Positions 39,728 through 61,106 of a stretch of DNA of 64,000 nucleotides are shown here, piece by piece (position 1 is the first letter of the stretch; the number at the start of each line of letters is the position of its first letter). The stretch lies in IMG/VR virus record IMGVR_UViG_3300046331_000190. One strand, 5' to 3'. The stretch comes from an uncultured virus (IMG/VR IMGVR_UViG_3300046331_000190) (taxonomy: Duplodnaviria; Heunggongvirae; Uroviricota; Caudoviricetes). Under the pieces are notes generated by a model that made no database searches, was not told the origin of the DNA, and saw nothing but the letters and a program-made list of their open reading frames with translations. Made by a program: the position numbers and the translations under genes.

Positions 39728-39934
39728 ATGTTTGCAAGTATAGAACTATCAGTACAAGACCTAGCAGACTTTACGTTTGAACTAGGCGTAACTCTTAATA
39801 AATATCTTGAATCAACAGCTGATCATCAATGGACAAGAAAAGAGCTATCATTTGGCTTCTTATTGTTCTCTATAAAACTGAACTGGCTGTTTGATCTAGA
39901 ACCATATCAAGGAGAACAAGATGAAGAAGAATAA
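39728..39934 (+). CDS. Small hypothetical protein
   Basis: 68 aa; A/C-rich leader; followed by a terminator. Confidence 0.55.
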   Translation: MFASIELSVQDLADFTFELGVTLNKYLESTADHQWTRKELSFGFLLFSIKLNWLFDLEPYQGEQDEEE

Positions 39935-39963
39935 AAAAGGGGCCCTTAAAGCCCCTCTTTTTT
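39933..39963. terminator. Bidirectional terminator at the convergence of the replication and cargo blocks
   Basis: AAAAAAGGGGC-CCTTAAA-GCCCCTCTTTTTT. Confidence 0.75.
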
Positions 39964-42900
39964 TATCTAACGTTACCCATTCGACCTGAGTAGTAAATCA
40001 CACGGTTAACGTTATTAACCCAAGGAAGAGACTTACTAATCTTTAGTAGAGTTCTTTCACCATCGTATTCTAATGTACCTTCTTCATCTGTCTTTTCAAC
40101 ACGAGCAAGATAGTATGTTGTTGCTACAATAGCATCTCTTGTCTGATTAAGCGTTGCTGTTATTGGTACAGCATTCTGTAATAATTCAGAGAAAGAGAAC
40201 GGGTTAATATAATATGTTAAATCACGATTCAATAGAGTAAGCTGATTAAGTAATATGTTTGCATACTTCTTATCTTCATCATCCTCATCATCACCTCCAA
40301 TAGCAAGTTTTAATGCTAAATAAGTCGCTGCTAGTACTACAATAGCTGCAAGCTCCATCATCATCTTTCTGATATTCGCAACCTGCATCTTATCTAATCC
40401 TTCAACCTCTCCTTTTGTTATAGCATCAATGATCTCTGATATTGATTCCTTTATTCTTAGACCATCATCGTTTATGAAGTTACCAAAGAATGTTTTATAG
40501 TATCCCTCTGTATCTCTCTCTAGTATAGGATCGTGACGCTTAGTCTCAAAACGAGTAGCTAATGTTTCAGGTAACCATGATCTAAAGACAAATAGTATAC
40601 GACCAATGATATTATCCTTACCAGCTAATGACTGAACATCACCAGAGAAACCATGAAGCTTCTTGGAGATCTGATTAATCTTCATCATTGACTTATCGTA
40701 TACTTCATCAAAAGTTTTACCACCATTCGCCTCCATATCCCACTCACCAAACTTCTCAGTGTCTATATTAAGATCTTTATCCATGATCTCAAATAGATTA
40801 AACTCTCCCTTTGTTGTCTTGACTTTTGTGTTTAACAACATAGCAATAGCTGTCTGAGATCTAAAGAAGTAATCAGTTGACTTCATTAAACCAAATGGAC
40901 TAGGGATAGCACTCTTGATAGTATCAAGCATGCTTCTACCGTTTAATCCTTTTATTGCATGAGCAAAGGTATTATCTTCTCCTTCAATAGTTTTAGTATC
41001 AAGCATCATACGTAAGATCTTTTCAGATTGCTCTGACTCAACCGTTCCCCATGATATATACTTAGCAACAGATGTTTTTAATATTGAAGTTGCTTTTCTT
41101 AACTGTGCTGAATCAAAGTCTTCTTTACCATAAGCATGTATCTGGTTATTGACACCACCAACAGCTAAGTTTCGAACAGCTGAGAATGGGTTTAATGCAA
41201 TACCTTTCTCTCTTGTGAACTTATTAAATGCATCAAAGAAGCTACTAATACTTAAGTTTCTACCACCAAGTTCATAATAAGCATCTGTCTTTTCTGTTAT
41301 CTGACGTTCAATACTTTTACGCTCAGCAGTTGTTAACGAGCGATTGTTCTCTAACTCTTGTGATAATGCTTCAAGTTCTTTCTCAAGAGCTTTTGCTTGC
41401 TTGTATTTCTCAGACTTATATGTTCCAAGTGTTAATAGCTCAAGTGAGTTGTAGAAAGGTCTGTCCATTACTCCTTCTGCTTCAGGAGTTATTCTATAGA
41501 ATGATCTTAGTACAGTACTTTGAACCATCTCTTGCAAGACTTTTGGAGCCTCACTAACAACAACATCTCCTTTTAAACGTACATTCTTTGTTGAAGAAGT
41601 AGCTCCTTGAACAATATTATTGATCGTATCAATAGTATCTTGAACCTCAATCTTATGTTTATAGATAAGAGCCATGTCACTGAACAGCTTTGCAATAAGA
41701 TTTAAGTCCGTACTGCGTTGTTCAACTGGAACATTCTCGTTTATAAAACGTGGCGTGAAACCATAACGTGTTACGCCGCTAATAGGATCAGCTTTACCAG
41801 CTGTCTTGTAATCGATTGTAGTTAAGTTTTTAAAGAACCACTCATCGATACCTTTCATCCCTTCTTTAAGACCAGACAAACCATACTCTTTGCTTAATCT
41901 CTCTGTTACAACAGGTAAGAAGTTAGACTGCAAAGAGTCAATCTCATCTTGTGGAAGATAAGACAACTGCTGCTTCATAAAGTCACGGAAGAAAACATAG
42001 AACTCATATAAGTCTTTATCTGCTGCAATCTTAGCAAAATCTTGGTCATAGTAGTTACTATTAGCACCATTAACTATCTTACGTGGGATCTTAATAGAGT
42101 ACTTACTACCCTTCGTTACAGTTGATCGATCAAACTTTAGCGTACCATTAATCAAAGCATTGTATGCTAACGGATCATTGATCTTTTTCCACTCTTCAAC
42201 TTGCTTCTCTATATACTCTTCATCAGTACCATCTTCTGGTTGTAATACAACAACACCTTTTATGATATCATCTTGCAAACTAATAGAGAATGTTTCTGCA
42301 TCAGTAACATACTGAGAGTAACGTGCTCGTGCTTGTTTAACAAAGTCATTTATCTCTTCTGCAGTAAAGCCTTGATTCTTAAGATCGTTTATTACATTAA
42401 GTCTTTGCTCATCAGTAAAAGCACTTGTATTAATAAAAGGAGCTGAGTTAAAAGCAATTGTGTGTTCTTTAACCCACTGGTTATGCTCAGCCCATACAGC
42501 AGCAACAACTTCTTTGTTATCTTTTGCTGTATCAAGATTCTCTTTTAACTGGCGGTATCTTCTTTTTATAGACTCATACCACTCCTGAGAGAAACGACCT
42601 TTAAACCCAAGAGTCTTAATAGGTTCACCAAAAGGATTCTTAGTCTCTTGCTGCTTAATAAACAGATCAAACCCGTTCTCTTTGAACAAAGGATTATCCA
42701 TGATCTTTGCAGTTGCTTCGTCAATCTTTTTGTGGTTACGGTTATGCTCTTTTTCAATACGCATATTAACCTCAGTAATCAACTTAGCTAGGTATCCAAC
42801 AAGCTTGTTATCAACAGTTGTGATATCACGAGCTTTTGCTTTCCAATAGCTGACATCTTTCATTGCTTCGATGTCTTTTATTGTAACCTCTTGACCTTCA

Positions 42901-43784
42901 CCAACATTTTTGTTGATTGCTTTTAGTATCTCGTTCTTTGCAAAGTAAGCAATACGATTGTTAAAAGACTGAGCTGCATCATTAATCTCTATTAAAGTAT
43001 CTCTAGTAGTAAAAGTACCATCTGAATCAGCAGGTACTTCCATGATGTTTGGAATATTAAACAAACGCTCCATGTTTGTCCAGGTCTTTATAATATCATC
43101 AGCAAGTAATAACTCACTTAATGATACAACAGAACCGGACAACATCTCTTTTATTGTTTGGATATCAGCTAGACCTTGAGCAACAACAATCTTAATGCTG
43201 TTCTCTTTTTGTAATGTATCTATCTGAGTCTCAAGACGTTTGATCAAAGCATTATAATACTTTTCACGCTCAATCTTCTGCTCTTTTGAATACTCTTTGT
43301 TTAGCTTAGCTCTTTCTCTTGCATCAACATGTTGCTTGATACGATCTTTTAACTCATCACGCATCAACTTAACTGTTGGAAGCAATCCTTTTATAGACTT
43401 AACTCTTCGTGAAGATAACTTAACATCTAATGGATGAGTGAACTCAATAAAGTCAAAGATAGAACGAGTAAGTCCATCCTTTGTAATAGTATAATCAGCA
43501 TTAATCTTTGGCTCTTCTACCCACTGACCATACCATGACTGGAACTTTGGTGTGTACAACGTAAGATAAATACCTAAAGCTTGCTCACTAGGATCAGTAG
43601 TATTCTTTATGTACTTACCTACATGCTTTTGCAACGAAGCATTGATGTTTCCACCATGCTCCGCTGGAAGACCTTTAGTCTCAATCCCAGATAATATATC
43701 GTAATAAGCAGTTGATACTATCTTACCATCAGGTAGACGCACATCTGTGATTAAGTTATTCTTTCTTTTAATAAGGCAAGCCAT
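39963..43784 (-). CDS. Giant virion cargo/ejection protein (1273 aa)
   Basis: Adjacent to the vRNAP; helical; C-terminal hydrophobic segment ELAAIVVLAATYLALKLAIGG; single Cys at position 3. Confidence 0.7.
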   Translation of the reverse strand: MACLIKRKNNLITDVRLPDGKIVSTAYYDILSGIETKGLPAEHGGNINASLQKHVGKYIKNTTDPSEQALGIYLTLYTPKFQSWYGQWVEEPKINADYTITKDGLTRSIFDFIEFTHPLDVKLSSRRVKSIKGLLPTVKLMRDELKDRIKQHVDARERAKLNKEYSKEQKIEREKYYNALIKRLETQIDTLQKENSIKIVVAQGLADIQTIKEMLSGSVVSLSELLLADDIIKTWTNMERLFNIPNIMEVPADSDGTFTTRDTLIEINDAAQSFNNRIAYFAKNEILKAINKNVGEGQEVTIKDIEAMKDVSYWKAKARDITTVDNKLVGYLAKLITEVNMRIEKEHNRNHKKIDEATAKIMDNPLFKENGFDLFIKQQETKNPFGEPIKTLGFKGRFSQEWYESIKRRYRQLKENLDTAKDNKEVVAAVWAEHNQWVKEHTIAFNSAPFINTSAFTDEQRLNVINDLKNQGFTAEEINDFVKQARARYSQYVTDAETFSISLQDDIIKGVVVLQPEDGTDEEYIEKQVEEWKKINDPLAYNALINGTLKFDRSTVTKGSKYSIKIPRKIVNGANSNYYDQDFAKIAADKDLYEFYVFFRDFMKQQLSYLPQDEIDSLQSNFLPVVTERLSKEYGLSGLKEGMKGIDEWFFKNLTTIDYKTAGKADPISGVTRYGFTPRFINENVPVEQRSTDLNLIAKLFSDMALIYKHKIEVQDTIDTINNIVQGATSSTKNVRLKGDVVVSEAPKVLQEMVQSTVLRSFYRITPEAEGVMDRPFYNSLELLTLGTYKSEKYKQAKALEKELEALSQELENNRSLTTAERKSIERQITEKTDAYYELGGRNLSISSFFDAFNKFTREKGIALNPFSAVRNLAVGGVNNQIHAYGKEDFDSAQLRKATSILKTSVAKYISWGTVESEQSEKILRMMLDTKTIEGEDNTFAHAIKGLNGRSMLDTIKSAIPSPFGLMKSTDYFFRSQTAIAMLLNTKVKTTKGEFNLFEIMDKDLNIDTEKFGEWDMEANGGKTFDEVYDKSMMKINQISKKLHGFSGDVQSLAGKDNIIGRILFVFRSWLPETLATRFETKRHDPILERDTEGYYKTFFGNFINDDGLRIKESISEIIDAITKGEVEGLDKMQVANIRKMMMELAAIVVLAATYLALKLAIGGDDEDDEDKKYANILLNQLTLLNRDLTYYINPFSFSELLQNAVPITATLNQTRDAIVATTYYLARVEKTDEEGTLEYDGERTLLKISKSLPWVNNVNRVIYYSGRMGNVR

Positions 43785-43786
43785 AC

Positions 43787-46700
43787 TTATTTACATTGAT
43801 TGTTTAAAGAGTAGTCACTAAGATTATCTGTCGCTGCACTAAACAAGGTTGTTTGACCTGTAGTATCTGTACTGTCTTCAGTCTTTGTATCAACAACACT
43901 AAGCAAGTTAGTAATATTTTTTATACCTTGATCTAATACTGAGTCAGTTTTTACATCCATGCCTAATGCTTTTGTTAAAGCTTGAAGTAAACGCTTTAAT
44001 ATGTCAGCAAACTTAGATGTTACAGTCTTCTTTGATGAGTCAACAGAAACTCCATTCATAAACTCCTGGAACTTCTTATCAGTCATTAACATACTAACAA
44101 ACTCATGTTCGCTTGTTAAGCCGTAGTACATGCTCTTTTCCTCTTCTGTAAGAGTGTTAGCATCACTATCTTCAAACACAGAGTTGGAAACTTTTGCAAT
44201 AACTGCTTTTAGTTTTTCAGCATGCTCTGGATTTGATAATAAAGACTCTCTTGTTAATAGATATAACTGCTTAATAGAAGCTGCATACATACGCTCTTCT
44301 TTAATCTTATAAGCAGAAGCCTTACCACTTAACTTGAACAATGACTGAGCAGTATATCCATGTAATAACTCATGAACAATAGCATCCTCAAGATTTTCAC
44401 TTCTTGACTTAGCACTGTTACTCTGTAATACAATATCAGGATTAATTACTATCTGATTAGTTACTGTATTGTATATCGCAGGATCAGCAATAGTCTTTGA
44501 TAATACAACTGATATCTTATTCACATCACCAGTAAACTTAAGTGAGTCAATCAATACTTTGTAGAACTCATTAGATGTATTAGCTCTTACCTTTGTTAGA
44601 ACAGAAGCAAGTGTATTAACACCTTCAGCATCAGGAATATAATCTTCTATTACAGAAGTATCAGATGCTATTGGAGATCCGTTAGAAGCATTTGTATCTT
44701 CACCACTTAAGAATATCTCAGGATCAGAAGGCATATCAGCAAAACTAAACAAGTCCATACTAGCAACTACAACATCATCATCCATCTGAGGCATGAATGT
44801 ATCCTCAGCAAATAAATCAGCAGGCTCTTGTGTAGGAATAGCTTCTCCGTATTCTAGCTTAATATTATTAAACTGACCAATCTCAGATGCTTTATATCCT
44901 TTTGCTTCAAGATAGTTCTTTACAAGAGTATTGATGCCTTCTGCTTTGCTGTATAATACAACAGATGCTTTTGCTTTTATAATACTCTCAAGCTTTGGAA
45001 CATATAAATCCTCAAACATTGGAGATAACTTATCAATAGCTTCGTTTCTTGTAATATGGTTAAGCTTAGCATCAGGTGATAACACCTCAATGAATCGCTC
45101 ACCAGATACAAGAACTACATCTCTATCAGTATACTCACCTGTATTAATGTTTCCTTTATAACGTGATGATAAAATATTATGCTTGTTACTAGGATTGTTA
45201 GTATCATAAGGGAATGATACTGCCGTAGTTGCATAATTAGATAACTCAATCTCATCAACAACAAGACTAGTATTACCTGCAAACCCAATAAATGGATTAG
45301 TATCAGATGTAATAATCTTCTCAAGCTTCTGACTTGGTAACAAGTTACTAAAGTCAACAGAACGCATTGTTGCTGGATTAACACCTAACTGATATTCATA
45401 TGCTGAGTTGTTTCCTAGTGTTTGTATTCTCTTGTATGAGTTTTCACCAATACGTTTAAACAATACTATTTGACTATTAACATAGTAACGCAAGAACTTA
45501 GGGAATGTTGGTACTGTATTCTTATAACCTTCAAGCGACTGGAAAGAACTGTTTATAAGCAAATGAGTCATGTTCTTTGGTAAAGTATAAATACTTTCTC
45601 CTCTTGAATCTTTTGCTACAGTATTTGTATTTGTTAACGCTTTATATGCATCCTTATCAATATAAGAAGCCATATCAGGATTATTCATGATATACTGCTC
45701 ATAGAAGTTATCAACGTTTTGTCTAAACGTATCATAGAACTTACCAATGAAATCTGTGTGTTGCTTATTAAGCAATCTTACTTCAATAGGAATGTATCTA
45801 AAGAACGAAGCTTTATCTGCAACAGATCCACTAACAAACGCATACTTGATTAAGTCTTTACCAATACTTGCTATCTCAGGATCTTCGTTTAGCATTAAGT
45901 CTAAGAAGCCTTTATTGTTTGCAAGCTCGTCAATGTCTTGACTAAATGGAGACTTATACTCTACTGATTTAATGCTTAGTCTTGTTTTACCTATTGGTAT
46001 AACGGGTTTTAATCTAGCAAAGAAGTAGTTGTTTCTTAACTCTGGATACTTGATGTTTAATGCAAGAATACGCTCAGCTAAAGAAGGATTTTGTTCTGTA
46101 CCAACAAGAAGTCTATATCTTTCTTCTTCCATATCACCAGTAATAAAACCAGCTTCTGGGCTACTGTAGATATATGCTTTCAAGTTGCTAAGAACATCTT
46201 CAGCTAAAGCATTGAACTTAATTCGACCATAGTTGTCAATACCGCCCTTACCCTTGTTCTTTTGAGTAACAATCTCTTCTAGTAAGTTCTGGAATACTGT
46301 ATCAAAGTGAATAGGTGATACCTTACTTAATACTTTGTATGCTAAGAAGATACTATTCTTAACAGCATGACCAGTCTGAGTAGTTGGTGTAAAGTCAACA
46401 CTCTCACTAATTGGATCAGTCTCAAACTTACCAAAGATAGCATCAATGTTTAATAGTCTATCAACTACTACAGGATCTCCTTTTAATGGCTTAATAACAA
46501 CAGGTAAACCTTCACCATATTGAGTATCAGCAGCTTTTGCAATACTCTGGAACTTACGATACTTACTTAGTAAAGTAAACAAGTTAGATCCAACACCTTG
46601 ACTAATAACATTACTGTTATTTAGTAATGTTGATTGAGGAGTACCGTAAGCATGTAATGTCTCATAGTAAGTAAGAATAGATAACTGCTTCATGATAAAC

Positions 46701-49700
46701 TCATCAAGTACTTTTCTATCTTCTGGCTTAAAGTTGATATCCGCTGGAGAATAAGCAAGCATAAGTTGATTCAACTTAGGTCGCAATACTACTTCTTCTT
46801 TTAAAAGATCAAGAAGCTCTTTTGGATTAAGTACTGGCATAGCACCAATATTATCTTCTGTTGCAAGCTCTCTAGCATTTGCACTTAGCAGATTAATAAA
46901 CTGCATCTTAACATCTGCAATAATCTCAGATGTATACTTCTTCTGTCCACCAGCAAAACTATCTTTTGATATCTCTTCTTGTTCATTAAGATACTTAACA
47001 ATAAACTGAGGGAAGAAACGTGTTACGTAACGTAAGTCAGCAATCTCACCACTGTTAGAACTTAATGACATAAGTAACTTAGCTGGTGCCATTGATGCAC
47101 TATTCAAGTTAAATACGTTAAGGTTCTTATTCTTTGCGTTGTCTAATGATTCGTTAAGAGTAGCAGAAGCATTCTGAGTCTTTGATCTTGTTAATGTCTT
47201 ACCCGTAGCATCGCTCTTAAATGTAGTATTACCTTCTGCAGTTAGATAGCTAAGATTTACAATCTCACCGCTATCTTTCTTAATGTTAATACCAGCAGAA
47301 AAACCAACAGTCTTTTTGTCTTGATGTTCAGCAAGGAATGATAATAGCTGAGCAAAGATACCTGTACCTAGTTTACCACTTCTATTATCTAAGAACGTAT
47401 TGATCTGAGTATTGTAATCAAACGGTAAGAAGTTAACTGGTAATGTTGCAATACCTTCTTTATAGAATAACTCTTTCTCATCGTTGTAGTCAGACAAGTC
47501 GATTGATGACGTAATCTTATCAAATGTTGTTGGGTGAGTAAGTACTGACCAGTGTATATCTTTATACATCTCAAACAACTGCTCTTCTGATAAAGACTTT
47601 GGATCAAAGTTTTTAAAATCGCTAATAGACGACTCGTAAGCAACTGGCTCAACAGATTCGATCTGTGACTTCTGTGCTTTTATCTTATCGTTTATAGCAG
47701 TTAGCTCAGCAGCTCTCTGACTCTTAATCTTATACTTTGTTTGATTAAGCTTCTTACGCTCAACACCATTAGCTACTTCATCATAGATTGAAGATCTCTT
47801 CTCATATAAACCATCAAGAATACGTTGCTTTTGCTCACGCTCTTTCTCACCTAGATTCTTATAACCTAAGCGAGTTCTATACTTCTCAATGCTTTCGTTA
47901 AGCTTTGCAATCTCAAACTGTTGTTCGCTGTTAAGTAACTTTGCTAAATCAATATCTGCTTTTTCTAACTGTTCTTTGTACTTATCTTTTATAGCTTCTT
48001 TCTCTTTTGTAAGTTCATCTATTAACTTAGATGCAGAATTCTTGTAAGTATACTTAGGATTAGATAAATAAGCATATAACTTATCAACGTCAAAGTCAGA
48101 ACCCATCTGTGCTGTAATACCATCAGGAACAATAATAGTGTTCTCCATATATGATGGTAAGAAACCAGCAACTTCAATAGGAAGCATTGATGAGTGCAAC
48201 TGATTTGGAATACGTGCACCAATAAGTTGTAATAACTTTCTTGGAATGCGTGTACTGTCAAGAATCAATCTACCGTTCTCATCTTTTGTAGCAAAGTCTT
48301 TTATGTTTATAAGCTTTCCGTTCTCATCCTTTAAGAACTGAGACATAAATACTTGTGCTGCTTGCACCTCACCTTTCTTTACCTTCCCGCCTTTAGATAC
48401 AGCATCAGCTTCTTTTCTGATATACTGTAATCCTTTTGAGGCATCATACACTTCTGTATAAACAATCTCACTCTTTAACTTATCAGATAACTCACCCTCT
48501 TTAATCTTTGTACCAACTGCAGATACTTGTACTAATGATGTACCAGTAAGCTTTAGCTTAACTACTTTACTAAAGATAGATGTAAGCAATCCTTCAAACT
48601 TAGAGCTATTTGATAATAAATATACTGGTATAACTAACTTACCGTCTTTGTTTGTTGCAATAGAACGAATATCGTTTATGCTTAAGTTACGAGAAATAGC
48701 TTCTTCTTTTAATAAGTTAGCTAGGCTTCTCTCGCTCTTGAATGAAACATACTCATCGGTTATTGAAACACCCATTCTATCAAGAAGCTCTTCAGCATTT
48801 CCTTCAAATAAAGCAATACGAATCTGCTCTTTCAATCCTTTTAACTGAGCTGCCGTAAGCTTCTTGCCTGCAAACATAAAGTCAAGAACGCTATCAAGAC
48901 CTTCAAATAACTGACGGTCCATCTGACTAACAACGTTAATCATCTCTTTTTGGTGAGGAATCTCTTGTTGTGTACGAAGACCTTCTCTTGAAAGAGTCTG
49001 CACGTTAGAAGAGAGCTCAGCTTCAGATGGCTCAATAAAGTTACCGTTATCATCAAACACTTCTAATGTTGATATAGGTGCACCTGTTTTTGTTGCAGTT
49101 TTAAATGCAGCAGAACCGACGTTGTTTTTCTCCATGAACACACGAAGCTTGTCCATCTCTGAATCGCGCGTGTTATCTGGAATAAGAGGATATGCTGAAG
49201 ACTTAACGTAGTTAATCTCATTAAACCCATCGGTCTCAGAGTTAGAAGAATGTACTGGCTTTGTTGGCTGCAATACAAACCCTAACTCGATATCTGATAA
49301 AGAGTAATCAAAGGTTTTCTTCTTACGAGCTTGTGCTATCTTATCAGAAATACTCTCATAAATATCTAAAGGGATTCTGCCCTCAGACATCATACGATTA
49401 ATATGCTCTTGTAATGTAACAAACTCCTGAGCATCCGTTGTTTCAATCTTGCTGAACTGATCGTTAGACTTAATCACGTCTTTTAACGTAATCATCTTGT
49501 ATAAAGATACATCAACAATCTTTCCCTTTGTGCTTTGCCAAGTTGTAGTACCCTGAGAACCAGGAGCAATAAACATAGCAGCACGTTTTGAGAACTCATC
49601 AACTGTACTTAGTACTGTACCATTAAGAACATCGTTTATAATATTACGTTTGCTCTGCTCTTCTGGTGTCATCTCAGTTGATACATTGTATGACAATAAC

Positions 49701-52276
49701 TGATTAACAGTCATTGACTCACCAAATACCTCTTTGATTTGATTAGCACTAACAAGCTTTGACTCTTTATAGAATAAAGCCATATCAGCACCTAATACTT
49801 GAGTAGTATTAATCTGAGCTCTAAGCACGTTATACTTTAAATCTGCAATAGCAAAGATAGCCTTACTTGAATCTTGTAGCTGTGAAAGCTGATTCATGTA
49901 AACATTATTAAAGAAAGGAAAGTAATAAGATGTCTGTACTCTATTTGTTGCTGGATCAATACTAGTTGGTCCTTTTGATATAATGTTTTTACGCAACAAG
50001 TTAGATAACTCTTTTATAACGTCATCTTTTATTGACTCACCAATAAGATCTTTTAGGTATTGAGCATCTTCTATGGATGGTTCAACCCCTTGATAGATCT
50101 TTGTTCTGATCATATTAAGCTTTGCATCAGAACGATTGTTTAATACTGGGAATAAAAAGAACATCTTACTAGCTGTTTCAAAGTTAGCAATGTTCAGCTT
50201 TTCTTTCTTAGTATAGTTAGCATACGCAATCATACGATCTATCTCAGCTTTTGCTAGATCATATAACTTATTCTTGAATGCGTCTTTAAACTGGAATGAA
50301 TCTCTAACTGTTGGCTTAGTCTTGAAGAAAGCAAAATCAGTTGATGGGTCAAGACTATCTTTTGTTATTTGTATTACCGGAGCGGTTGTCTTATCCGATA
50401 AAGTAAACATATTATAGTAGCCAGTCTTAGCAAAGTTATTCTGATGCTTTAAATATGTATCAAGAATTAACTCTCTTGGTGACTGGTTCTTTTTAACCTT
50501 ACCAATCTCACCTTTCTTATCTTCTTTTATACTATCTGAATACGATATTGCATAAACAAATGATTCGTTATCAGTCTTCTCGTCTTCAAGCAAACGTCTA
50601 ACTACTTCTGAACTTTTACTATAAGCTCTATTGCTTAGTACCTCTAAGAAACTCTTTGTCTTTAGCTTTTTCTTTACTGTTTCTAAGTAAGAAGGTTGTA
50701 CATAAGCATAGATGTTTTTGTTCTCACCATTCTGATAACTACCAGTTTGATAGATATCTGAGTGTAAATCATAGTAAAGACTTGCAAGTATATTAAATAC
50801 ACGCTCGTGAACAATAGGGTTGTTCTTATCTTCGTAGTTTGCTGACTCAGTTGTTGTATCAATATCAGCTGTTAACGTATTAAGAATATTATCAACAACA
50901 TTACCTGTTGCAAGTAAATCAGAGAAGCTCTTTGCTTTAAAGGTTCTGAACTTGTTTGCTTTTAATGCTGCTCCAACATGTTTCATGTAAGCATCATCAA
51001 CAGGAATATTCATTGAAGTAAGTAACTCTTTAAAGAACTCTTGTTTCTTTGTTAAGTTATTACCAGATCTAATCTCTAAGTACTTCTCTTTCAATGACTT
51101 AGCTAACTCAGTGTTTATAACTAAGTTACCAAACTTATTCTTGTTAACAAGCTTTGATACTTTTTGTAACTCTAACCAATCGCTTTTTATTTGTCTGACA
51201 ACGCTATTACGATTAGAGCTAATGACTTTAACAGTTACACCACCTTCTTTACCTTTCTCCCAAAGCAACATAGTATGATCTGTGTATGCTTTGTTTATTA
51301 CAGTAAGTACTTCGTTTAGTAGCTGAACGTTTTTTGACGCTTGTAACTCACCTAACTTTTTATGAACGTTTAGTAGGTATGGCTTAACCTGAGCTTTCTC
51401 TAAAATAGATTCTTGCAAAGACTCATAAGTAACATGTTGCAATCCCGCACCTAATACTAACAGGTCTTCAAATACTTGATCGTAAGCCACGAAATCAGCA
51501 AGACCTAATAGATTAGCCTTGTCACTCTTAATGCTTGAAAATAACAGCTTTACACGAGTCGTAGCAGTATCCTTTGGGTTCATCTGGAATGAACGTGAAT
51601 CAGAAAAGCTTTCGTTTACTGAAGGGTCTTCAACATCAACATCATCTTCACCAAATAACTCACCTGCATCAGCAAGTAAGCTCTCATAATATTCGTTTGT
51701 TAAACCAAAGTCTTGAATCTCGTTTTCAGATGAAACCTTTAGTCCTAAACGATTAAGCTTAATGATAACTTGCTCTGTGAACTTATTGAAGTTCTCATCA
51801 TCAGTAACGTTATCTAGCAACTCTCCAAGATAAGAGAACTCCTTGTAGTTAAGAATACCAAGCTCAGGTATCTTAGAAAGCATATCTTCTGTTGCTGATT
51901 CTTTTAAAGCATTATATGCTTCTTCTGAAGTAGCAATATTCTCAGTAAAATACTTAACCTTTAAAGCAGTGTTCTTTAACTTACTCTTTATATCAGCAAA
52001 TAAAACACGAGATGATTTCTCATACGTACCACCTGGCTTTAACAGACCAAGCTCATCAACGAACTGAGAAAAGATCGCGTTCGTTATTGACTGCTCTTGT
52101 ACAAGATTAAATAAGTTGATGTTAACAAAGCGATCTTCAACAGCTTGTTTTACAAGATCTAATAATTGTTCATCAGACAGACCTTCATTACCTGGTAGAG
52201 TAGCAGCACTCTTTAGAATCTGCTTAACCTCTACTTCTGAAAACTCTGATCCGCTAATGTTATATAAACATGCCAT
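43787..52276 (-). CDS. crAss-like virion-packaged RNA polymerase (2829 aa) with C-terminal zincin-like domain
   Basis: ARIPNQ...GSDFDVDK catalytic region (DFDVDK at 48080-48097); TDAQEF; HELLH (44360-44374)...HEFVS. Confidence 0.85.
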   Translation of the reverse strand: MACLYNISGSEFSEVEVKQILKSAATLPGNEGLSDEQLLDLVKQAVEDRFVNINLFNLVQEQSITNAIFSQFVDELGLLKPGGTYEKSSRVLFADIKSKLKNTALKVKYFTENIATSEEAYNALKESATEDMLSKIPELGILNYKEFSYLGELLDNVTDDENFNKFTEQVIIKLNRLGLKVSSENEIQDFGLTNEYYESLLADAGELFGEDDVDVEDPSVNESFSDSRSFQMNPKDTATTRVKLLFSSIKSDKANLLGLADFVAYDQVFEDLLVLGAGLQHVTYESLQESILEKAQVKPYLLNVHKKLGELQASKNVQLLNEVLTVINKAYTDHTMLLWEKGKEGGVTVKVISSNRNSVVRQIKSDWLELQKVSKLVNKNKFGNLVINTELAKSLKEKYLEIRSGNNLTKKQEFFKELLTSMNIPVDDAYMKHVGAALKANKFRTFKAKSFSDLLATGNVVDNILNTLTADIDTTTESANYEDKNNPIVHERVFNILASLYYDLHSDIYQTGSYQNGENKNIYAYVQPSYLETVKKKLKTKSFLEVLSNRAYSKSSEVVRRLLEDEKTDNESFVYAISYSDSIKEDKKGEIGKVKKNQSPRELILDTYLKHQNNFAKTGYYNMFTLSDKTTAPVIQITKDSLDPSTDFAFFKTKPTVRDSFQFKDAFKNKLYDLAKAEIDRMIAYANYTKKEKLNIANFETASKMFFLFPVLNNRSDAKLNMIRTKIYQGVEPSIEDAQYLKDLIGESIKDDVIKELSNLLRKNIISKGPTSIDPATNRVQTSYYFPFFNNVYMNQLSQLQDSSKAIFAIADLKYNVLRAQINTTQVLGADMALFYKESKLVSANQIKEVFGESMTVNQLLSYNVSTEMTPEEQSKRNIINDVLNGTVLSTVDEFSKRAAMFIAPGSQGTTTWQSTKGKIVDVSLYKMITLKDVIKSNDQFSKIETTDAQEFVTLQEHINRMMSEGRIPLDIYESISDKIAQARKKKTFDYSLSDIELGFVLQPTKPVHSSNSETDGFNEINYVKSSAYPLIPDNTRDSEMDKLRVFMEKNNVGSAAFKTATKTGAPISTLEVFDDNGNFIEPSEAELSSNVQTLSREGLRTQQEIPHQKEMINVVSQMDRQLFEGLDSVLDFMFAGKKLTAAQLKGLKEQIRIALFEGNAEELLDRMGVSITDEYVSFKSERSLANLLKEEAISRNLSINDIRSIATNKDGKLVIPVYLLSNSSKFEGLLTSIFSKVVKLKLTGTSLVQVSAVGTKIKEGELSDKLKSEIVYTEVYDASKGLQYIRKEADAVSKGGKVKKGEVQAAQVFMSQFLKDENGKLINIKDFATKDENGRLILDSTRIPRKLLQLIGARIPNQLHSSMLPIEVAGFLPSYMENTIIVPDGITAQMGSDFDVDKLYAYLSNPKYTYKNSASKLIDELTKEKEAIKDKYKEQLEKADIDLAKLLNSEQQFEIAKLNESIEKYRTRLGYKNLGEKEREQKQRILDGLYEKRSSIYDEVANGVERKKLNQTKYKIKSQRAAELTAINDKIKAQKSQIESVEPVAYESSISDFKNFDPKSLSEEQLFEMYKDIHWSVLTHPTTFDKITSSIDLSDYNDEKELFYKEGIATLPVNFLPFDYNTQINTFLDNRSGKLGTGIFAQLLSFLAEHQDKKTVGFSAGINIKKDSGEIVNLSYLTAEGNTTFKSDATGKTLTRSKTQNASATLNESLDNAKNKNLNVFNLNSASMAPAKLLMSLSSNSGEIADLRYVTRFFPQFIVKYLNEQEEISKDSFAGGQKKYTSEIIADVKMQFINLLSANARELATEDNIGAMPVLNPKELLDLLKEEVVLRPKLNQLMLAYSPADINFKPEDRKVLDEFIMKQLSILTYYETLHAYGTPQSTLLNNSNVISQGVGSNLFTLLSKYRKFQSIAKAADTQYGEGLPVVIKPLKGDPVVVDRLLNIDAIFGKFETDPISESVDFTPTTQTGHAVKNSIFLAYKVLSKVSPIHFDTVFQNLLEEIVTQKNKGKGGIDNYGRIKFNALAEDVLSNLKAYIYSSPEAGFITGDMEEERYRLLVGTEQNPSLAERILALNIKYPELRNNYFFARLKPVIPIGKTRLSIKSVEYKSPFSQDIDELANNKGFLDLMLNEDPEIASIGKDLIKYAFVSGSVADKASFFRYIPIEVRLLNKQHTDFIGKFYDTFRQNVDNFYEQYIMNNPDMASYIDKDAYKALTNTNTVAKDSRGESIYTLPKNMTHLLINSSFQSLEGYKNTVPTFPKFLRYYVNSQIVLFKRIGENSYKRIQTLGNNSAYEYQLGVNPATMRSVDFSNLLPSQKLEKIITSDTNPFIGFAGNTSLVVDEIELSNYATTAVSFPYDTNNPSNKHNILSSRYKGNINTGEYTDRDVVLVSGERFIEVLSPDAKLNHITRNEAIDKLSPMFEDLYVPKLESIIKAKASVVLYSKAEGINTLVKNYLEAKGYKASEIGQFNNIKLEYGEAIPTQEPADLFAEDTFMPQMDDDVVVASMDLFSFADMPSDPEIFLSGEDTNASNGSPIASDTSVIEDYIPDAEGVNTLASVLTKVRANTSNEFYKVLIDSLKFTGDVNKISVVLSKTIADPAIYNTVTNQIVINPDIVLQSNSAKSRSENLEDAIVHELLHGYTAQSLFKLSGKASAYKIKEERMYAASIKQLYLLTRESLLSNPEHAEKLKAVIAKVSNSVFEDSDANTLTEEEKSMYYGLTSEHEFVSMLMTDKKFQEFMNGVSVDSSKKTVTSKFADILKRLLQALTKALGMDVKTDSVLDQGIKNITNLLSVVDTKTEDSTDTTGQTTLFSAATDNLSDYSLNNQCK

Positions 52277-52277
52277 A

Positions 52278-55200
52278 TTAGTTACACTTCTTGTTAAGTT
52301 TATTCTCGTTCTCTAGTTTCTTAGTAGTAGTTGCTATTGACTTCAACTCATCATCGTTGCCTTTGATTAGATCTTTGTTAACTGTTTGATTAGCACCAAA
52401 CTGTTGTCCAAAGTCCATATCCATGAACTTAGCCAATGCTTCTTCTTGAGATAAAGGTGCTTGTGATTTAGATGTATCCGTTACATTAATATACGCAGAA
52501 TCAACCACTTTACCTTCTAATGCTACTAGTTCTGCATCATATTTAGCATCAATTACACTATTTACATCTATCTCTATAAAATTAGAAGTAACTCCGCTTA
52601 CATTGTTTAGATTAAGTTGATCATTACCCGCTCCTAACTGAACGACTTTTGCAGACACTCTTAATTCTGTTCCTAAATAGTCTAGAACTAACTCGTTATT
52701 ATTATAAGATATTGGCATATTAACCCAACCTAAAACATCTGTTAGATATTCTCTAAACTTTATTAAAACTTCTTTAGGTGACTTTTGTGGTAAGATATAA
52801 TTACTTTCAGGAATATCTTTGTTTTGCTGCTTATCTTTTTTTCTTTCGTTCTCTATTAAAACTCTAGGATCTATTGTTGGTTCAACAGGAGCAGGAGCTT
52901 TTGGTGCAACTTCAGGTTTAGTACCTGATGATGGAGTCTCTGAATCTATATTACCAAATACAACAACAGGGTTAGAGAAGTGTACTAACTCATCAGCATC
53001 TATGTTAGCTTCATCGTAAGGACGTCCTTCTTCTAATGTAGTCTCAAGTGTTTGTAGCATATATTCATTATACGTCATAGGCTGTGATTGCTCTAAAGCA
53101 CCTGTATCAGGGTTGATAGTAAGATCAGTCATTAACTTATCATTACCAATACCTGCTGATTGCTCAGTACCAAAGCGTATACTGTATCTTAAGTTTGCTG
53201 CAATATCGTAAAACTTATTGATTTTTTCTTCTGATATCTCATCTAAGTTTCCGATAATAAGACTGTCCTTTTTCTTATCACCTGTGTTTACTTGCCATAT
53301 TGATAAGTATCCTTTTGGTGTAATATTAAAGTGAACTTTACCTTGACTTATTGGATTGTATGCTTTTGAACTAGTATGAGTAATGTAATCATTAACATAC
53401 TTGCTTAAACGTGCAAAGTCAGCAGTCTCTCCGTCAATAAACTCAATACCATAAGCTTTGTACACAGCTTGAATAATAGCAAGATCACTATCTTTACTAT
53501 TCTTTCCTGCTGCTACATCAACGTTATAGTTATGAAACGCTCTCCATGAACCAAGAATAAAATCAATGTGTCCGTCTTTTAATACAGGAACCGTAACAAG
53601 AGAAGCAAGACGCTTACCTGTTGGAGTTGGTATTATAGCAACTGGCCATCCATTTGCTTTACCGTCAGTAATAATGTTTGGTACATAAAGATTACTCTCA
53701 GAGTACTTATCAGTAACGTGTACTTTACCTTGCTTAATAATAGCAACTTGAGTATTTTTGCTTAAAGCTTGCTTCAATGGTTTCTTTGAACCGTCAGTTC
53801 TTAGTACACCAACTGACTTTGCTATTACAGTACTTGTAAATACAGTCGCTTTATCTTTATTAAAGCCGTTGAACAATGCTTTTCTATGATCAAGAATAGC
53901 TTGACGTTGAATAGCAAGGTTATCAATAACTGTACCATCAGGTGTAACAATACGTTCTTTTGTGTGAGCTAATACTCCTGAGTCAGAATATCTAGCTGTA
54001 ACAAACTTAACTGTTGGCAAGTATCCAAGCTTTATCTTTTTACCATTATTCATAGTATAGATAGCAACTGGGAAGTCATTAATAGCTTCTTCTTTTATCT
54101 TACCGTCAGCATTAAAGAAGTCTTCTTTCTTACGCTTTGTGATACCAGTTTGCTGAACATAATCATAATCATCAAAGTCAGCAATGTTAGAATCAATCTC
54201 AAACATTAAAGGAGTACCTTCTTGTATACGAGATGTTCCTAAGATTAATGGATAAGACTCATTACCATCAGTACGCTTTAGTCTACGAACACCTTTCTTA
54301 TCTGTATACACTACAAAGTTGTCAGATGCATTATTGATCTTTGATCCAGAGTTGATTGGTGTTCTTGAATCTTCCTCAACAGATGTATCAGGATTTGTAC
54401 CATCAACATAATCAATATCAACATTATCTGTAGTATACTCAAGAGCATCTAAATCAACATCTTCTTCTTGAGCTTCTTTTGCTTTCTGTACTTCTTTCTT
54501 TTGAGCTTCAGTAACCGTAGCTACTGGAGTGACCATTGTCTTTGCTTTTGGATTAGAAGATACAGTAATAGCATTGTTTGTAAGAAAATCAGCTAACTGC
54601 TTATCTGTAAGCTCATACTCTGATTCATTACCATGTTGTACCCAAACTCTATCTTTACCAACAGAAACAATCTTAACTACTACCTCTGAACCATCAGTTG
54701 GTACTATATAATTACCAAGAACAAACTTAACTCCGCTTACTTCAAGACTATTGTTAGGATTAGCTTCATACTCTTCTTGCTCAGGATCAGGTTGTTCTTC
54801 ATCAACAACTACTGGAGTCTCCGTTGGAGCTTCAGCAACTACTGGAGGTTGTTCAACTTGAACAGCTTCTTCTGGAGTTACTGGTACTGGTTGATCTTCA
54901 GACGATACTTCTGGTGTTGGTTCAACCTCTATAGGCTCTGCTACTTCAGTTGGAACATTATTAGATGACTTAGCACCTGTATAAGTAAACTCAACACTAG
55001 TGTAGTTGTCTCTTGAAGGGTGAGCAATGTTAAACGTTATATCCTTATTACTAACACCATAGTTTAAAAGAATCTCTCTACCTTTTGTACTAAACCCAAT
55101 AAAAGCAGCAGGATTCATAACCCCCATGCCTTCTTCAGATATCTCTAGTTGGGACTTAATTACTTGGAAATAACCTTCTTTTAGATCTGCAAGAAGAGTT

Positions 55201-58070
55201 TCAACATTTATAGTTCCACCTTCTGGTGCATTTGCTGCATCTTCAACATCTTCTGTTAAGTCAGACGTATCAGGATCAGTAATGTTTTCTCCATCTTCTG
55301 GTGCTACTGCTCCAGTTAATGAGTCTGTAAATGATTTAGTAGCCTCATCCTTTGCTTCTTTTGCTAACTGCCCTTGTACTACTTTTTTTGCAGCCTTCAT
55401 ACGATTAGCCAAAGTAACAATACTTGTTGGATCTGCTAGGAAGTTATAAGCATTAAGATGTTCTTCAGAGTCATTATTTAACTGGATGTACTCTAATAGA
55501 TCTTCGTAAGTCTCATCAATATCTGTATTAGATAAAAGAGCAGTATTTAAACCAGCTTCTTCAGTCTTGTAGTTAATAAACCTCTTATAAGCATCTTTTG
55601 CATAACGCTGCTCACGCTTTGACATGTTAGTCTCATCGCGATTAGATAGATTCTGCCACGAGTCAAACCACTTTGAAATAGCTTGTAGCTGACGTTCTTT
55701 ATACTTAAGTGTTTGTGCTTCTTCAGGAGTACGTTTCTTTACTTGCTTAAGGTTATCTATCTCTTTTATAAGAAGATCCATCTCACCAAGCATCTTAGGT
55801 TGAGAACCTAATACTTTATATGCAGCAGAAGCAGCTCCTCCAAGATTAGGATTAGCAGCAGCTCTTGTGTATAAAGCATTTGCTCTTTCAATAGCAGACT
55901 TTGCTTTGAATGAGTTTGTTGCAAGCATCTCAATATAATCATCAAGAACACTCTTTAACATCTGAGCATCTTTCTGACCTTGACTACCTTCAGAGTATAA
56001 ATCTGGTTGGATTAAATCACCATACTTTTCGTTTAACGTTTCCCATGTTTTGTTAAACGTTTCAACATCATTAGCAATCTTGTTAAAGTATTCTTTAACA
56101 GACTTAGCACTATCAACCGTTGGATCTAAGCCGTATGCTTCTTTTGCATCCTCAACACTAAACGATTCTCCTTGACCTCTAATAGTATCAATCAAAGAAG
56201 AAACCATCCCTGCTTTCTTTGCAGCTGAAACAGCTTTTGCAAATGCAGTATCTCTTGAGTTATAGTAAGTATACTTATCTTTATTACCAACAGCTTCCTG
56301 CATTGTAGCAGCAACTTTATTCTGAACCTTAAAGTTTGCTATCTCATCTTTTAATACAGCATAAGGATTCTTGTAGAACTCGTTTATCGCAGCAACAGTA
56401 GCCGTCTTGTCTTTCTTTATCTCTTCTCGTTGCTTATCAGTGGTCATCATACGTTCTTGTACTTTGCCCATTGTAAAGTTGATTGGAGATAATAATCGAC
56501 CAGTAACAGCACCCATCAAGAATGTCTTCATTCCTTGAGTATCTGCTAATGGATTCTGAACACTACTCATGATAGCATCAGTCTTACCAGAGTATCCTTT
56601 CTTACCATGATATAAGTCATAGTAATAATCCTGAAGACCTTTGTTAGAACCTTCTTGGAATAACTCTTGTAAACCTTCTGATGTCTCCCACTTGAATAAG
56701 TTCTTTCCAAGAAACTTACTTACTTGCCATGCTGCTTCTTTTTTACCAAAGTCAGTAGCAATCTCTTTTGCTGCACCAAGAGCTCCTAATGAACCAACTT
56801 GATATACTTTAGTCAGTTCTTTATCAGCAACCTTACCTGATACCTTTAATACGTCATCAGCATATTGTCCAACGTTCTTGAATAATCTACGCTCAGCATT
56901 AAAATGACCAAGCATGTTATCAAACTGGAATCTATTAAGAGCAAATAGCATACCAAAGTTAACGTTGAAGTTGTCTGAGGATGCATCTTTTGATACTCTG
57001 TCAATACGTTCTAAGTCTTCACCAACTGGTAGCTCACCTGTTCTTTCAAGATGCTGTTCTGTTAAACGATCTTTAAGTTCTTTGTATGTACCAGCTGCTT
57101 CAAAAATGGCTTCTGAACGAGCCATGTTAGCTTCACTTAACGTTCTTCTAAATCCACCAAAGGTTAACGCTGCAATCTGAGCAGCACCTGCACCATTCTT
57201 ACCAGCAACAACTGCTTTCTCAATAGCGTTTGTAGTAGATCCAATAGGATTAAACTTCTGGAAACCTTTCCATATAGTCTTTGCTAATCCTTCTTGTTTG
57301 TAGATATCTCCAAGTGATTTGTTTAATCTTGCAAACTCCTCAACGTCTTGAAGCTTATCAACTCCTTTCATGAATCGCATTCCAAGCTTTGTAGCTGAAA
57401 ATAAACTAGATGCACCAAAGGTTAATAACTCTTCTGATAAAGCTTGAGCAATAGCACCAACTGCAAAACCTGAGTTTTGAACAAGATCTCCAAAGAACTG
57501 CTTGTTAAATACAGACTTCTCTGAATCAGCACTTCTAAAAATAGCGTACTTATTCATTACATCTTCTTGTATCTTTGCCATCTGATACATCTCTGTTTCA
57601 TCTGGTTGTAGCTTTGATGCATCAAAAGAAGTCATTGCATCAGCAAGTCTTCCCCAACCCTTCCATCCCTCAAGGAATGTATTAGAAGCTAGACGACCTG
57701 CGCCTGCAAAAGCATTACCCATTGTATCACCCCAAGTTTGTCTTGACGCATACAACTCTTCATTATTTCTTCTAGGATCAAAACCGAGCTCAGCAGAGTA
57801 CGATGAGTTAGTATATCTATCTAACTGTGTCTGCTCAGGGTTAAAGTTTATTGGCTGCATTTGAGTGGACAAAGAAGGTCCACCTGCCAATGCTCCTGAT
57901 AAAAAAGAAGCGGTAGGATCAGCAGTAGATGAGCTAACTAGTTGTTGTGCTTGTTCTTGACCACGTTGCTCAAAAGGATCGATAAAATCTAATAGCTTTG
58001 GCTCTAAGTCTGGTGTTTTAATATCAGGACCTCCAAGGCTATTATTGAGCGAGTTTAATATAGACTCCAT
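52278..58070 (-). CDS. Giant virion cargo/ejection protein (1930 aa)
   Basis: Gly/Ala amphipathic N-terminal region; EGLQELFQEG motif; Pro/Glu linker; single Cys penultimate. Confidence 0.7.
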   Translation of the reverse strand: MESILNSLNNSLGGPDIKTPDLEPKLLDFIDPFEQRGQEQAQQLVSSSTADPTASFLSGALAGGPSLSTQMQPINFNPEQTQLDRYTNSSYSAELGFDPRRNNEELYASRQTWGDTMGNAFAGAGRLASNTFLEGWKGWGRLADAMTSFDASKLQPDETEMYQMAKIQEDVMNKYAIFRSADSEKSVFNKQFFGDLVQNSGFAVGAIAQALSEELLTFGASSLFSATKLGMRFMKGVDKLQDVEEFARLNKSLGDIYKQEGLAKTIWKGFQKFNPIGSTTNAIEKAVVAGKNGAGAAQIAALTFGGFRRTLSEANMARSEAIFEAAGTYKELKDRLTEQHLERTGELPVGEDLERIDRVSKDASSDNFNVNFGMLFALNRFQFDNMLGHFNAERRLFKNVGQYADDVLKVSGKVADKELTKVYQVGSLGALGAAKEIATDFGKKEAAWQVSKFLGKNLFKWETSEGLQELFQEGSNKGLQDYYYDLYHGKKGYSGKTDAIMSSVQNPLADTQGMKTFLMGAVTGRLLSPINFTMGKVQERMMTTDKQREEIKKDKTATVAAINEFYKNPYAVLKDEIANFKVQNKVAATMQEAVGNKDKYTYYNSRDTAFAKAVSAAKKAGMVSSLIDTIRGQGESFSVEDAKEAYGLDPTVDSAKSVKEYFNKIANDVETFNKTWETLNEKYGDLIQPDLYSEGSQGQKDAQMLKSVLDDYIEMLATNSFKAKSAIERANALYTRAAANPNLGGAASAAYKVLGSQPKMLGEMDLLIKEIDNLKQVKKRTPEEAQTLKYKERQLQAISKWFDSWQNLSNRDETNMSKREQRYAKDAYKRFINYKTEEAGLNTALLSNTDIDETYEDLLEYIQLNNDSEEHLNAYNFLADPTSIVTLANRMKAAKKVVQGQLAKEAKDEATKSFTDSLTGAVAPEDGENITDPDTSDLTEDVEDAANAPEGGTINVETLLADLKEGYFQVIKSQLEISEEGMGVMNPAAFIGFSTKGREILLNYGVSNKDITFNIAHPSRDNYTSVEFTYTGAKSSNNVPTEVAEPIEVEPTPEVSSEDQPVPVTPEEAVQVEQPPVVAEAPTETPVVVDEEQPDPEQEEYEANPNNSLEVSGVKFVLGNYIVPTDGSEVVVKIVSVGKDRVWVQHGNESEYELTDKQLADFLTNNAITVSSNPKAKTMVTPVATVTEAQKKEVQKAKEAQEEDVDLDALEYTTDNVDIDYVDGTNPDTSVEEDSRTPINSGSKINNASDNFVVYTDKKGVRRLKRTDGNESYPLILGTSRIQEGTPLMFEIDSNIADFDDYDYVQQTGITKRKKEDFFNADGKIKEEAINDFPVAIYTMNNGKKIKLGYLPTVKFVTARYSDSGVLAHTKERIVTPDGTVIDNLAIQRQAILDHRKALFNGFNKDKATVFTSTVIAKSVGVLRTDGSKKPLKQALSKNTQVAIIKQGKVHVTDKYSESNLYVPNIITDGKANGWPVAIIPTPTGKRLASLVTVPVLKDGHIDFILGSWRAFHNYNVDVAAGKNSKDSDLAIIQAVYKAYGIEFIDGETADFARLSKYVNDYITHTSSKAYNPISQGKVHFNITPKGYLSIWQVNTGDKKKDSLIIGNLDEISEEKINKFYDIAANLRYSIRFGTEQSAGIGNDKLMTDLTINPDTGALEQSQPMTYNEYMLQTLETTLEEGRPYDEANIDADELVHFSNPVVVFGNIDSETPSSGTKPEVAPKAPAPVEPTIDPRVLIENERKKDKQQNKDIPESNYILPQKSPKEVLIKFREYLTDVLGWVNMPISYNNNELVLDYLGTELRVSAKVVQLGAGNDQLNLNNVSGVTSNFIEIDVNSVIDAKYDAELVALEGKVVDSAYINVTDTSKSQAPLSQEEALAKFMDMDFGQQFGANQTVNKDLIKGNDDELKSIATTTKKLENENKLNKKCN

Positions 58071-61000: not shown

Positions 61001-61106
61001 CTGACCTCCGTTGTAACAACGTGCCTATTGCTCCAAAGTCTGGAGTAAATAAAGGAAGAGGAGCTATTGCGTTATTCCCTGAAGGATATGGATTTACTGA
61101 TGCCAT
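58074..61106 (-). CDS. Virion cargo protein (1010 aa)
   Basis: In the cargo block; N-terminal FTPDF motif; coiled coils; no Cys seen. Confidence 0.65.
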   Translation of the reverse strand: MASVNPYPSGNNAIAPLPLFTPDFGAIGTLLQRRSAMYEQGFNQIKAANDSIVNAPLTNQNNEVLRTQYLQQAQQSLKDISSMDLSEGKNVDQAQSVFAPFWQDKFMLRDMAYTKQAQSEISKAFAARDSTDEKIRATYSDTAIQYIQNGLDPLRTANRSEEDFAKVQQRRFIRSQNIMGDIEKLRKDAGFEVQTVDASGPQIVTTTNGVKSLTSYKNFIQANWKPEYDDYLRMEMTVAHERSVKEKMGQFGVSEMEAKQMIGKDYLADTRKTYESGKVELTANIAGIDSQLEELKKTKVTANNSTALMQKYRELEEAKKQYGKQISDYDERLTDIDKNYESNLRGVTANGPVYFTQYGKMKKMNDIANALASAIKQDVKKNDAFFATDDLRVKLEDLDLKKAQFEFTKAVARGEYPFSGTGKAILGVGPDGSPQISFGGGGNDGVLNGQDTTPEGKGKTQFDTPMVTGINTQAQITKANAYEVYVDNVTKQRYSAYNNIFSAIEKDADLQGILPTDFVKSLRAADGITPASAKTKYKDEIFTKLKEKGIIPADAKYDYASGPTRVVNAITSWMYNKYSEKYKSGKATDNELAIYNELEQSRDAINEWGLQSKEQKDLVNKALANDKYAPIRTGTPGNYKVLDPSTLTSIASKKYSISSKDISTKDLVSMLYSGDGVVKYDIPWSDKAGNYHSGRQYVVSKSTGEEYNVSGYISKFKDDYDFAKLAPLYKSVQSEIVPNAKYYIDRMGRAGMVTTYTSDGKRDTLDKGQLLVTEALAGSNFEQADGNGGVANIDALEQLGADREKVITFFNTTARDGGNALGRVDYTTIGKNGNPSVIIGYKQELLKEESKSGSGILDEKSIAAIGRLGIEVNLSNGIKLKNAPSVQEAGYISKVLTQGEILKSNQMDEAAGFRYMIKQNSRGDGLVIKIDKKVLSQATGPDSKPIIAGENDFVEGTLQEIPYNQMAPEELYQKIQQLKMQTYKQLRDFRTAAVPKEQSNVTLGDLLNNQ

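Follow-up and report, generated by a model that had tools for sequence, protein, structure and literature searches.

Cysteines at the facing ends of giant cargo proteins suggest a head-to-tail disulfide chain in a crAss-like phage

Why do three giant proteins encoded side by side in a phage genome keep cysteine (Cys) only where the end of one faces the beginning of the next? The question arises from 64,000 nucleotides (nt) of the uncultured virus IMGVR_UViG_3300046331_000190 (Caudoviricetes); this whole stretch is called the window here. Five large genes, all on the minus strand, occupy positions 39963-63982 of the window. Three of them form the RNA-polymerase cargo block of a crAss-like phage and encode protein A (1930 amino acids (aa), 213.5 kDa; 52278..58070), protein B, which is the virion RNA polymerase or vRNAP (2829 aa, 318 kDa; 43787..52276), and protein C (1273 aa, 145 kDa; 39963..43784). 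Together, they amount to 677 kDa. An earlier note on this DNA had proposed that terminal cysteines join the three proteins into an ordered chain; A would be its first link and C its last.

We recounted the cysteines by script and found 4 Cys in the 6032 residues of the three proteins, all on facing ends. Protein A carries its Cys at the penultimate residue (Cys1929 in ...NKKCN*, codon TGT at 52284..52286), facing Cys3 of the vRNAP (MAC, codon TGT at 52268..52270). The vRNAP has only one other Cys, again penultimate (Cys2828 in ...NQCK*, codon TGT at 43793..43795), and this residue faces Cys3 of protein C, its sole Cys (MAC, codon TGC at 43776..43778). The N-terminal end of A and the C-terminal end of C are without Cys. 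The earlier note had given these positions exactly; the recount also agreed with it that the three proteins have no internal Cys, that the upstream 1010-aa and 939-aa proteins have none at all, and that the A, B and C genes lie 1 nt and 2 nt apart with neighboring frames that differ.

The pattern is far beyond chance by two measures. Across the window's 33 other open reading frames (ORFs) of 150 aa or more, Cys makes up 93 of 9383 residues (0.99%), compared to 0.05% in the five large proteins. At the 0.99% rate, 79 Cys would be expected in the 7981 residues of these five, and the Poisson probability of four or fewer is 8e-29. If four Cys were scattered uniformly, the chance of finding one of them within 3 residues of each facing end is 1.5e-12. 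One could argue that ejection proteins simply shun Cys and that the few survivors fall at the ends by luck, since the ejected proteins of Schitoviridae are known for such suppression (0.00075% Cys versus 0.865% in the available text of PMC11445570). The counts already refute this explanation, because, besides the placement in the window, 158 of the 247 Cys in 141 chain proteins lie within 10 residues of an end, a zone that makes up 0.81% of positions.

The identity of the polymerase rests on its catalytic motif and a structural homologue. The 2829-aa protein matched PDB 6VR4_A, which is gp66 of phage phi14:2 (phmmer E 5.4e-24, query residues 940-1459), as well as PHROG 16227, a virion structural protein family (E 1.2e-48). 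Its tblastn matches were Flavobacterium phages, Cellulophaga phage phi14:2 g066 ('Catalytic RNA polymerase subunit') and gut crAss-like phages. The DFDVD motif spans residues 1394-1398 (48083..48097, minus strand), and D1394, D1396 and D1398 are invariant in two alignments, which we call alignment A2 (30 vRNAP homologues) and alignment A4 (29 sequences, 28-73% identity). Near the C-terminal end, a zincin-like HExxH motif, HELLH, at residues 2635-2639 (44360..44374, minus strand) is nearly invariant in alignment A2 and invariant in alignment A4. Because of the DFDVD motif and the 6VR4 match, the protein is, by its sequence, a crAss-like vRNAP of the phi14:2 gp66 kind. The 1930-aa and 1273-aa proteins are the customary flanking partners of this polymerase, and some relatives encode the same block as a single polyprotein of about 5,000 residues. 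Judging by homologues found in virions, the window vRNAP would be packaged in the particle and ejected. A Pfam scan of the five large proteins returned no family, a megablast of the region against phage records returned no match, and the protein C profile (alignment A3) found no match among PDB sequences.

The terminal Cys are kept in orthologues, as the chain proposal would have it. A relative with 72% identity (L003) has the identical four Cys and none besides. Ninety-one vRNAP homologues, ranging from 98% to about 23% identity, contain 193 Cys in 320,020 residues (0.06%), and 141 of these lie within 10 residues of an end. The N-terminal Cys is present in 66 of the 91 and the C-terminal Cys in 75. 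The homologues that lack one are mostly longer chains: 12 of the 16 without the C-terminal Cys also include protein C homology; of the other four, three are truncated fragments, and one has 1362 extra residues in which no kinship was detected. Similarly, 23 of the 25 without the N-terminal Cys have at least 1050 extra residues before the polymerase homology; the remaining two are a fragment and P0042, which has no explanation. Protein A homologues (n = 53) show a Cys within the last 16 residues in 48 cases and an N-terminal Cys in none. The mirror image holds for protein C homologues (n = 42), with an N-terminal Cys in 41, the exception being a 723-aa fragment, and a C-terminal Cys in none. 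The only invariant terminal columns of alignment A4 are M1, C3, S2813 and C2828, so both vRNAP cysteines are among them; C3 of protein C is invariant in alignment A3.

Performing an alignment-based scan of viral contigs, we confirmed 508 stretches and kept the best 80, which gave 76 new loci. Another scan of viral contigs, with a three-sequence alignment, yielded three loci already known and nothing further. The 76 loci, L003, phi14:2 and the window make 79, which were dereplicated at 80% identity of the largest ORF to 67; L001 and L002 (copies at 100% and 98%) and phage crAss001 were left out of this count. A junction was defined as two consecutive same-strand ORFs of at least 300 aa, with the last 10 and the first 10 residues taken as the facing ends. 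Among 173 junctions in the 67 loci, 75 had Cys on both ends, 88 on neither, one on the C-terminal side only and nine on the N-terminal side only (Fisher p = 1.6e-37, a value not corrected for kinship). The positions are narrow as well. In 71 of the 75 paired junctions the upstream Cys lies 0-3 residues from the C-terminal end, and in all 75 the downstream Cys is at position 3-6.

Across the order, the pairs come and go with the breaks between genes. We compared fused and split forms among the 64 ORFs that hold the catalytic motif. The N-terminal Cys was present in 0 of 32 forms in which A and B are fused and in 24 of 24 split forms; the C-terminal Cys was found in 0 of 8 forms with B and C fused and in 53 of 56 split forms. 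No Cys at all is found in the complete triple fusions (L014, 5005 aa; L049, 4799 aa; L080, 4933 aa). A quick maximum-likelihood tree built from the catalytic core requires at least eight changes of the A|B state and at least six of the B|C state. Independent contrasts on well-supported branches went in the expected direction in 6 of 6 cases for A|B (sign test p = 0.031).

The cargo blocks of cultured crassviruses are homologous to that of the window and follow the same Cys rule. In phi14:2, the sole Cys of gp67 (1797 aa) is its last residue, 1797; gp66 (2180 aa; PDB 6VR4) has Cys at 3 and 2179, and gp65 (1421 aa) at 3. In crAss001, gp47 (2341 aa) has Cys at 2339 only, gp50 (2412 aa) at 5, 1334 and 2404, and gp49 (1349 aa) at 5 only, with gp47 encoded on the strand opposite gp50 and gp49. 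The cargo-block proteins were detected in virions by mass spectrometry for phi14:2, according to the record notes, and for crAss001, according to the available text of PMC10172136. The two B|C breaks in phi14:2 and in the window are at different places. The HEIMH of phi14:2 gp65 (residue 245) aligns with the window HELLH at 2635, and gp66 ends at about window residue 2315. Therefore, the phi14:2 break lies roughly 400-500 residues upstream of that in the window, on the other side of the HExxH region, which belongs to the vRNAP chain in the window and to the next protein, gp65, in phi14:2. Despite the differing positions, both breaks carry the Cys pair.

Other new breaks in the cargo genes behave alike. 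Near window residue 1185, the polymerase is split in L027, L029, L031 and L042, which leaves the new ends ...C-D* and M-A-C. The gap of about 480 nt in these split-polymerase loci contains a ferritin-like gene (PF00210, rubrerythrin-like, E 3.4e-12); in this one clade, it stands between the vRNAP halves at L027 13078-13554 and also in L029, L031, L042 and L039. Homing-endonuclease-like genes of the GIY-YIG type (PF01541) are located at breaks in L056 (21913-22638) and L066 (7625-8293 and 9314-9949, the latter ORF assigned as GIY-YIG-like from its N-terminal sequence only), and the pieces on both sides are Cys-tipped. One piece in L066, only 92 aa long, has Cys at residue 4 and at its penultimate residue.

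These observations bear on whether the codons rather than the residues matter. A ribosome hop might use the Cys codons for take-off and landing, or they might act as a coupling signal, such that one fused protein is made through a feature of the RNA. Both window junctions do resemble each other (TGT-AAN-TAA, 1-2 nt, ATG-GCN-TGY). Matched codons on either side recall gene 60 of phage T4. But crAss001 gp47 sits on the opposite strand from gp50, and the gap exceeds 20 nt in 11 of 75 paired junctions, reaching 1496 nt and in several cases enclosing whole genes. Moreover, in 54 of 75 junctions the Cys is separated from the stop by 1-3 sense codons, Cys is invariably the residue used though any matched codon would serve, and the downstream genes begin with ATG and have A, S or G as residue 2 in 60 of the 75. 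Such a second residue would permit removal of the initiator Met by Met aminopeptidase. Because of the opposite-strand partner and the gene-filled gaps, readthrough, hopping or any other junction signal in RNA is excluded as the general cause, and we give a hop next to no credence; the earlier note had argued against stop readthrough from the reading frames, and the relatives bear it out.

Several specific candidates were also tried and rejected. A T4 gene 60-type bypass does not fit the window, where a sense codon stands between the Cys and the stop. The codon that precedes each stop is found again as the sixth codon of the following gene (AAC/N6 and AAA/K6), as a hop signature might be; N and K are very common residues here, and other loci show no such match. 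A split intein would have halves of about 100 and 35 residues with a border Cys, while the window Cys lie 1-2 residues from the ends and no Pfam family was found. Neither a split intein, nor a lipobox, nor a zincin-like cysteine switch predicts pairs that vanish on fusion.

A precedent for the bond exists in cyanophage A4. Its pre-ejectosome was solved by cryo-electron microscopy with a disulfide between gp27 Cys1715 and gp26 Cys5 (PNAS 2025, available text of PMC12002296). In the record of this cyanopodophage (Anabaena phage A-4L), the sole Cys of gp27 (1717 aa) is at 1715 and that of gp26 (1114 aa) at 5, and the genes are adjacent in that order. These are large capsid-internal ejection proteins, as the window proteins are predicted to be, with the sole Cys at the upstream C-terminal end and the downstream N-terminal end, and the window shows the same arrangement, with Cys on facing ends only and the genes in the corresponding order. 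The two systems differ in that gp27-gp26 is a pair, whereas a chain of three is proposed for the window; there is also no RNA polymerase in the A4 pair. In A4, the bond holds a helix fast in the cleft of a fivefold ring, and the available text of that paper describes one bond without any rule linking it to gene breaks or fusions (PMC12002296). Searching profiles from alignments A2, A3 and A4 against A-4L gp26, gp27 and gp28 gave no match at E 0.01. As judged from these sequences, the likeness is one of working, not of descent. Schitoviridae (N4 gp50, DEV gp71-73) offer another parallel, as they also combine a giant virion RNA polymerase and companions with suppressed Cys (PMC11445570, in part). 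Their ejection proteins keep no Cys, whereas those of the window keep one per facing end.

The same evidence speaks to the partner of each cysteine. The terminal Cys may instead bond like copies, giving A-A or C-C pairs and rings or polymers of B, or they may bind the portal or capsid rather than the gene-order neighbor. Indeed, crAss001 gp57 forms a homodimer with disulfides, as reported in the available text of PMC10172136. However, such bonding needs no pairs, yet the survey found 75 junctions with both Cys and 88 with neither against 10 one-sided ones; both Cys vanish on fusion, and the A4 structure, as far as the available text goes, displays a hetero-pair (PMC12002296). We consider these other partners quite improbable.

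A different bond between neighbors in gene order is only a little less unlikely. The facing Cys could be bridged by a shared metal ion or by other thiol chemistry, which would leave the chain as it is. The pairing data do not separate kinds of thiol link, and a zincin-like HExxH region is present on these proteins. On the other hand, two Cys are too few ligands for a usual zinc site, the four invariant terminal columns of alignment A4 offer no further conserved ligand near the ends, and the one solved case, cyanophage A4, is a disulfide in the text available to us (PMC12002296).

Taken together, the facing Cys pairs are probably intermolecular disulfides that tie A, B and C head to tail in the assembled particle, to which we assign a probability of roughly 0.7 on the comparative sequence evidence. 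The pairs behave as a substitute for the peptide bond: they are present at breaks, absent from the continuous chain, and always Cys. For this reason, a disulfide is the simplest chemistry. The computational tests that the earlier note had proposed, on conservation and on pairing with breaks, favored the link between molecules that it had suggested, and the bond itself is what we infer from them. A disulfide-linked A-B-C would be one thread of about 677 kDa, equivalent to the fused form. Beyond each window Cys, only a stub of 1-2 residues follows, so the joint would be hardly wider than two strands and might fit through a narrow tail channel. Lys or Arg next to the upstream Cys is enriched three to four times over the 13% background (33 of 75 at -1 and 30 of 58 at +1), and a neighboring Lys would favor the thiolate and hence oxidation. 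The bond would form after assembly or release and may serve joint packing and ordered ejection. The chain would be threaded through the tail as a single polymer, and reduction in the host cytoplasm would release it. Alternatively, the bond may lock the packed assembly, as proposed for cyanophage A4.

Disulfides do occur in crAss001 particles, where the available text of Bayfield et al. (PMC10172136) places them in the tail and in the gp57 dimer. According to that text, the cargo proteins must unfold partly for exit, and packing and mutual interactions are the likely determinants of the order in which they are extruded. The word 'cysteine' occurs 0 times in that text, and the terminal Cys of the cargo proteins go unmentioned; cysteine and disulfide likewise occur 0 times in the accessible text of Drobysheva et al. 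(bioRxiv 10.1101/2020.03.07.982082). Full-text literature searches, in a collection that is not exhaustive, found no account of the Cys rule in crAss-like phages. Thus, the earlier remark that no description was in print holds for crAss-like phages within that collection, and it fails for cyanophage A4, whose disulfide is published (PMC12002296, in part).

Several points weigh against a disulfide chain. The host cytoplasm is reducing, so the bond is possible only after assembly or release, and the surroundings of gut phages are largely anoxic. Ten of the 173 junctions are discordant. Three of these (L045, L051, L065) cluster with crAss001-like loci, and in crAss001 the partner gene is on the other strand; in L007 and L017 the distance between the upstream Cys and the end is 14 and 11 residues; in L026, L053 and L056 a further ORF stands between the partners; and in L008 and L037 the neighbors are unrelated. 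The upstream Cys is 6-14 residues from the end in L006, L007, L017, L019-21 and crAss001 gp50. The split B|C forms of L026, L053 and L056 (3 of 56) lack the C-terminal Cys on B. The B|C contrasts, with about 3.7 of 4 in the expected direction and none opposite (p = 0.125), fall short of significance on their own, as they are too few to reach 0.05. Finally, the three-protein fusion of some phages is 'likely cleaved' in the available text of Drobysheva et al. (bioRxiv 10.1101/2020.03.07.982082), and if fused forms are cleaved, the reason for re-joining split forms becomes unclear. A co-fold of vRNAP residues 2540-2829 with protein C residues 1-500, from the window's own sequences alone, scored 0.01 and counts neither for nor against the chain.

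In L026, L053 and L056, the intervening ORF is Cys-poor and 584-697 aa long, and the later protein has an N-terminal Cys. An internal Cys, such as residue 5022 of 5419 in L026, may be the partner in these exceptions.

A broader proposal is that stitching of this kind extends to the whole order. Whether a gene-level break of the crassvirus cargo polyprotein comes from a homing-endonuclease or ferritin-like insertion or from moving a part to the other strand, a disulfide joining the Cys-tipped ends would mend it once the proteins are made. In every case, the particle would load and eject a single continuous thread of 5,000-6,000 residues that has the RNA polymerase at its center and would part only in the reducing host cytoplasm. 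We hold this generalization tentatively, at somewhat less than even odds.

Other features of the block and its relatives complete the picture of the locus. Upstream of A, the 1010-aa gene lies at 58074..61106 and the 939-aa gene at 61163..63982, both on the minus strand and outside the predicted chain. The 939-aa protein begins with a peptidase-like stretch, as its residues 11-92 match PHROG 2307, L-alanyl-D-glutamate peptidase (E 4e-13), and it is probably an ejected cell-wall hydrolase. The end of the cargo operon is marked by a terminator-like hairpin of 13 pairs followed by a T run (39933-39961, minus strand), located directly past the stop codon of the 1273-aa gene. Many vRNAP homologues (P0015-P0049 and others) have added enzyme domains by precomputed Pfam, namely helicase-like PF13604/PF13245, DUF1768 YbiA-like PF08719, SprT-like PF10263 and RNase H PF00075; given these domains, the ejected thread would thus deliver varied accessory enzymes. 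At L034 3645-4133, a 147-aa ORF with a signal-peptide-like N terminus is found between a Cys-tipped A and a BC fusion. In L043 (7822-24648), the cargo block is spread over many ORFs of 366-1068 aa, with Cys tips on some only; many breaks, sequencing errors or another genetic code may account for this fragmentation.

Among the phages of the human gut, crassviruses are the most abundant, and they have to pack giant cargo, the early RNA polymerase included, in fixed proportion and pass it through a narrow tail. If true, a chain of terminal disulfides would be a concrete, cheap and directly testable answer to how they do so. It would explain how cargo proteins fuse and split freely in evolution and how insertions within a giant gene that is essential to the phage are tolerated. 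The bond seen once, in cyanophage A4, would become a general design principle for ejected proteins. If stitching applies across the order, the giant essential gene would be tolerant of invasion by selfish elements, and the order in which the proteins enter the host would be fixed.

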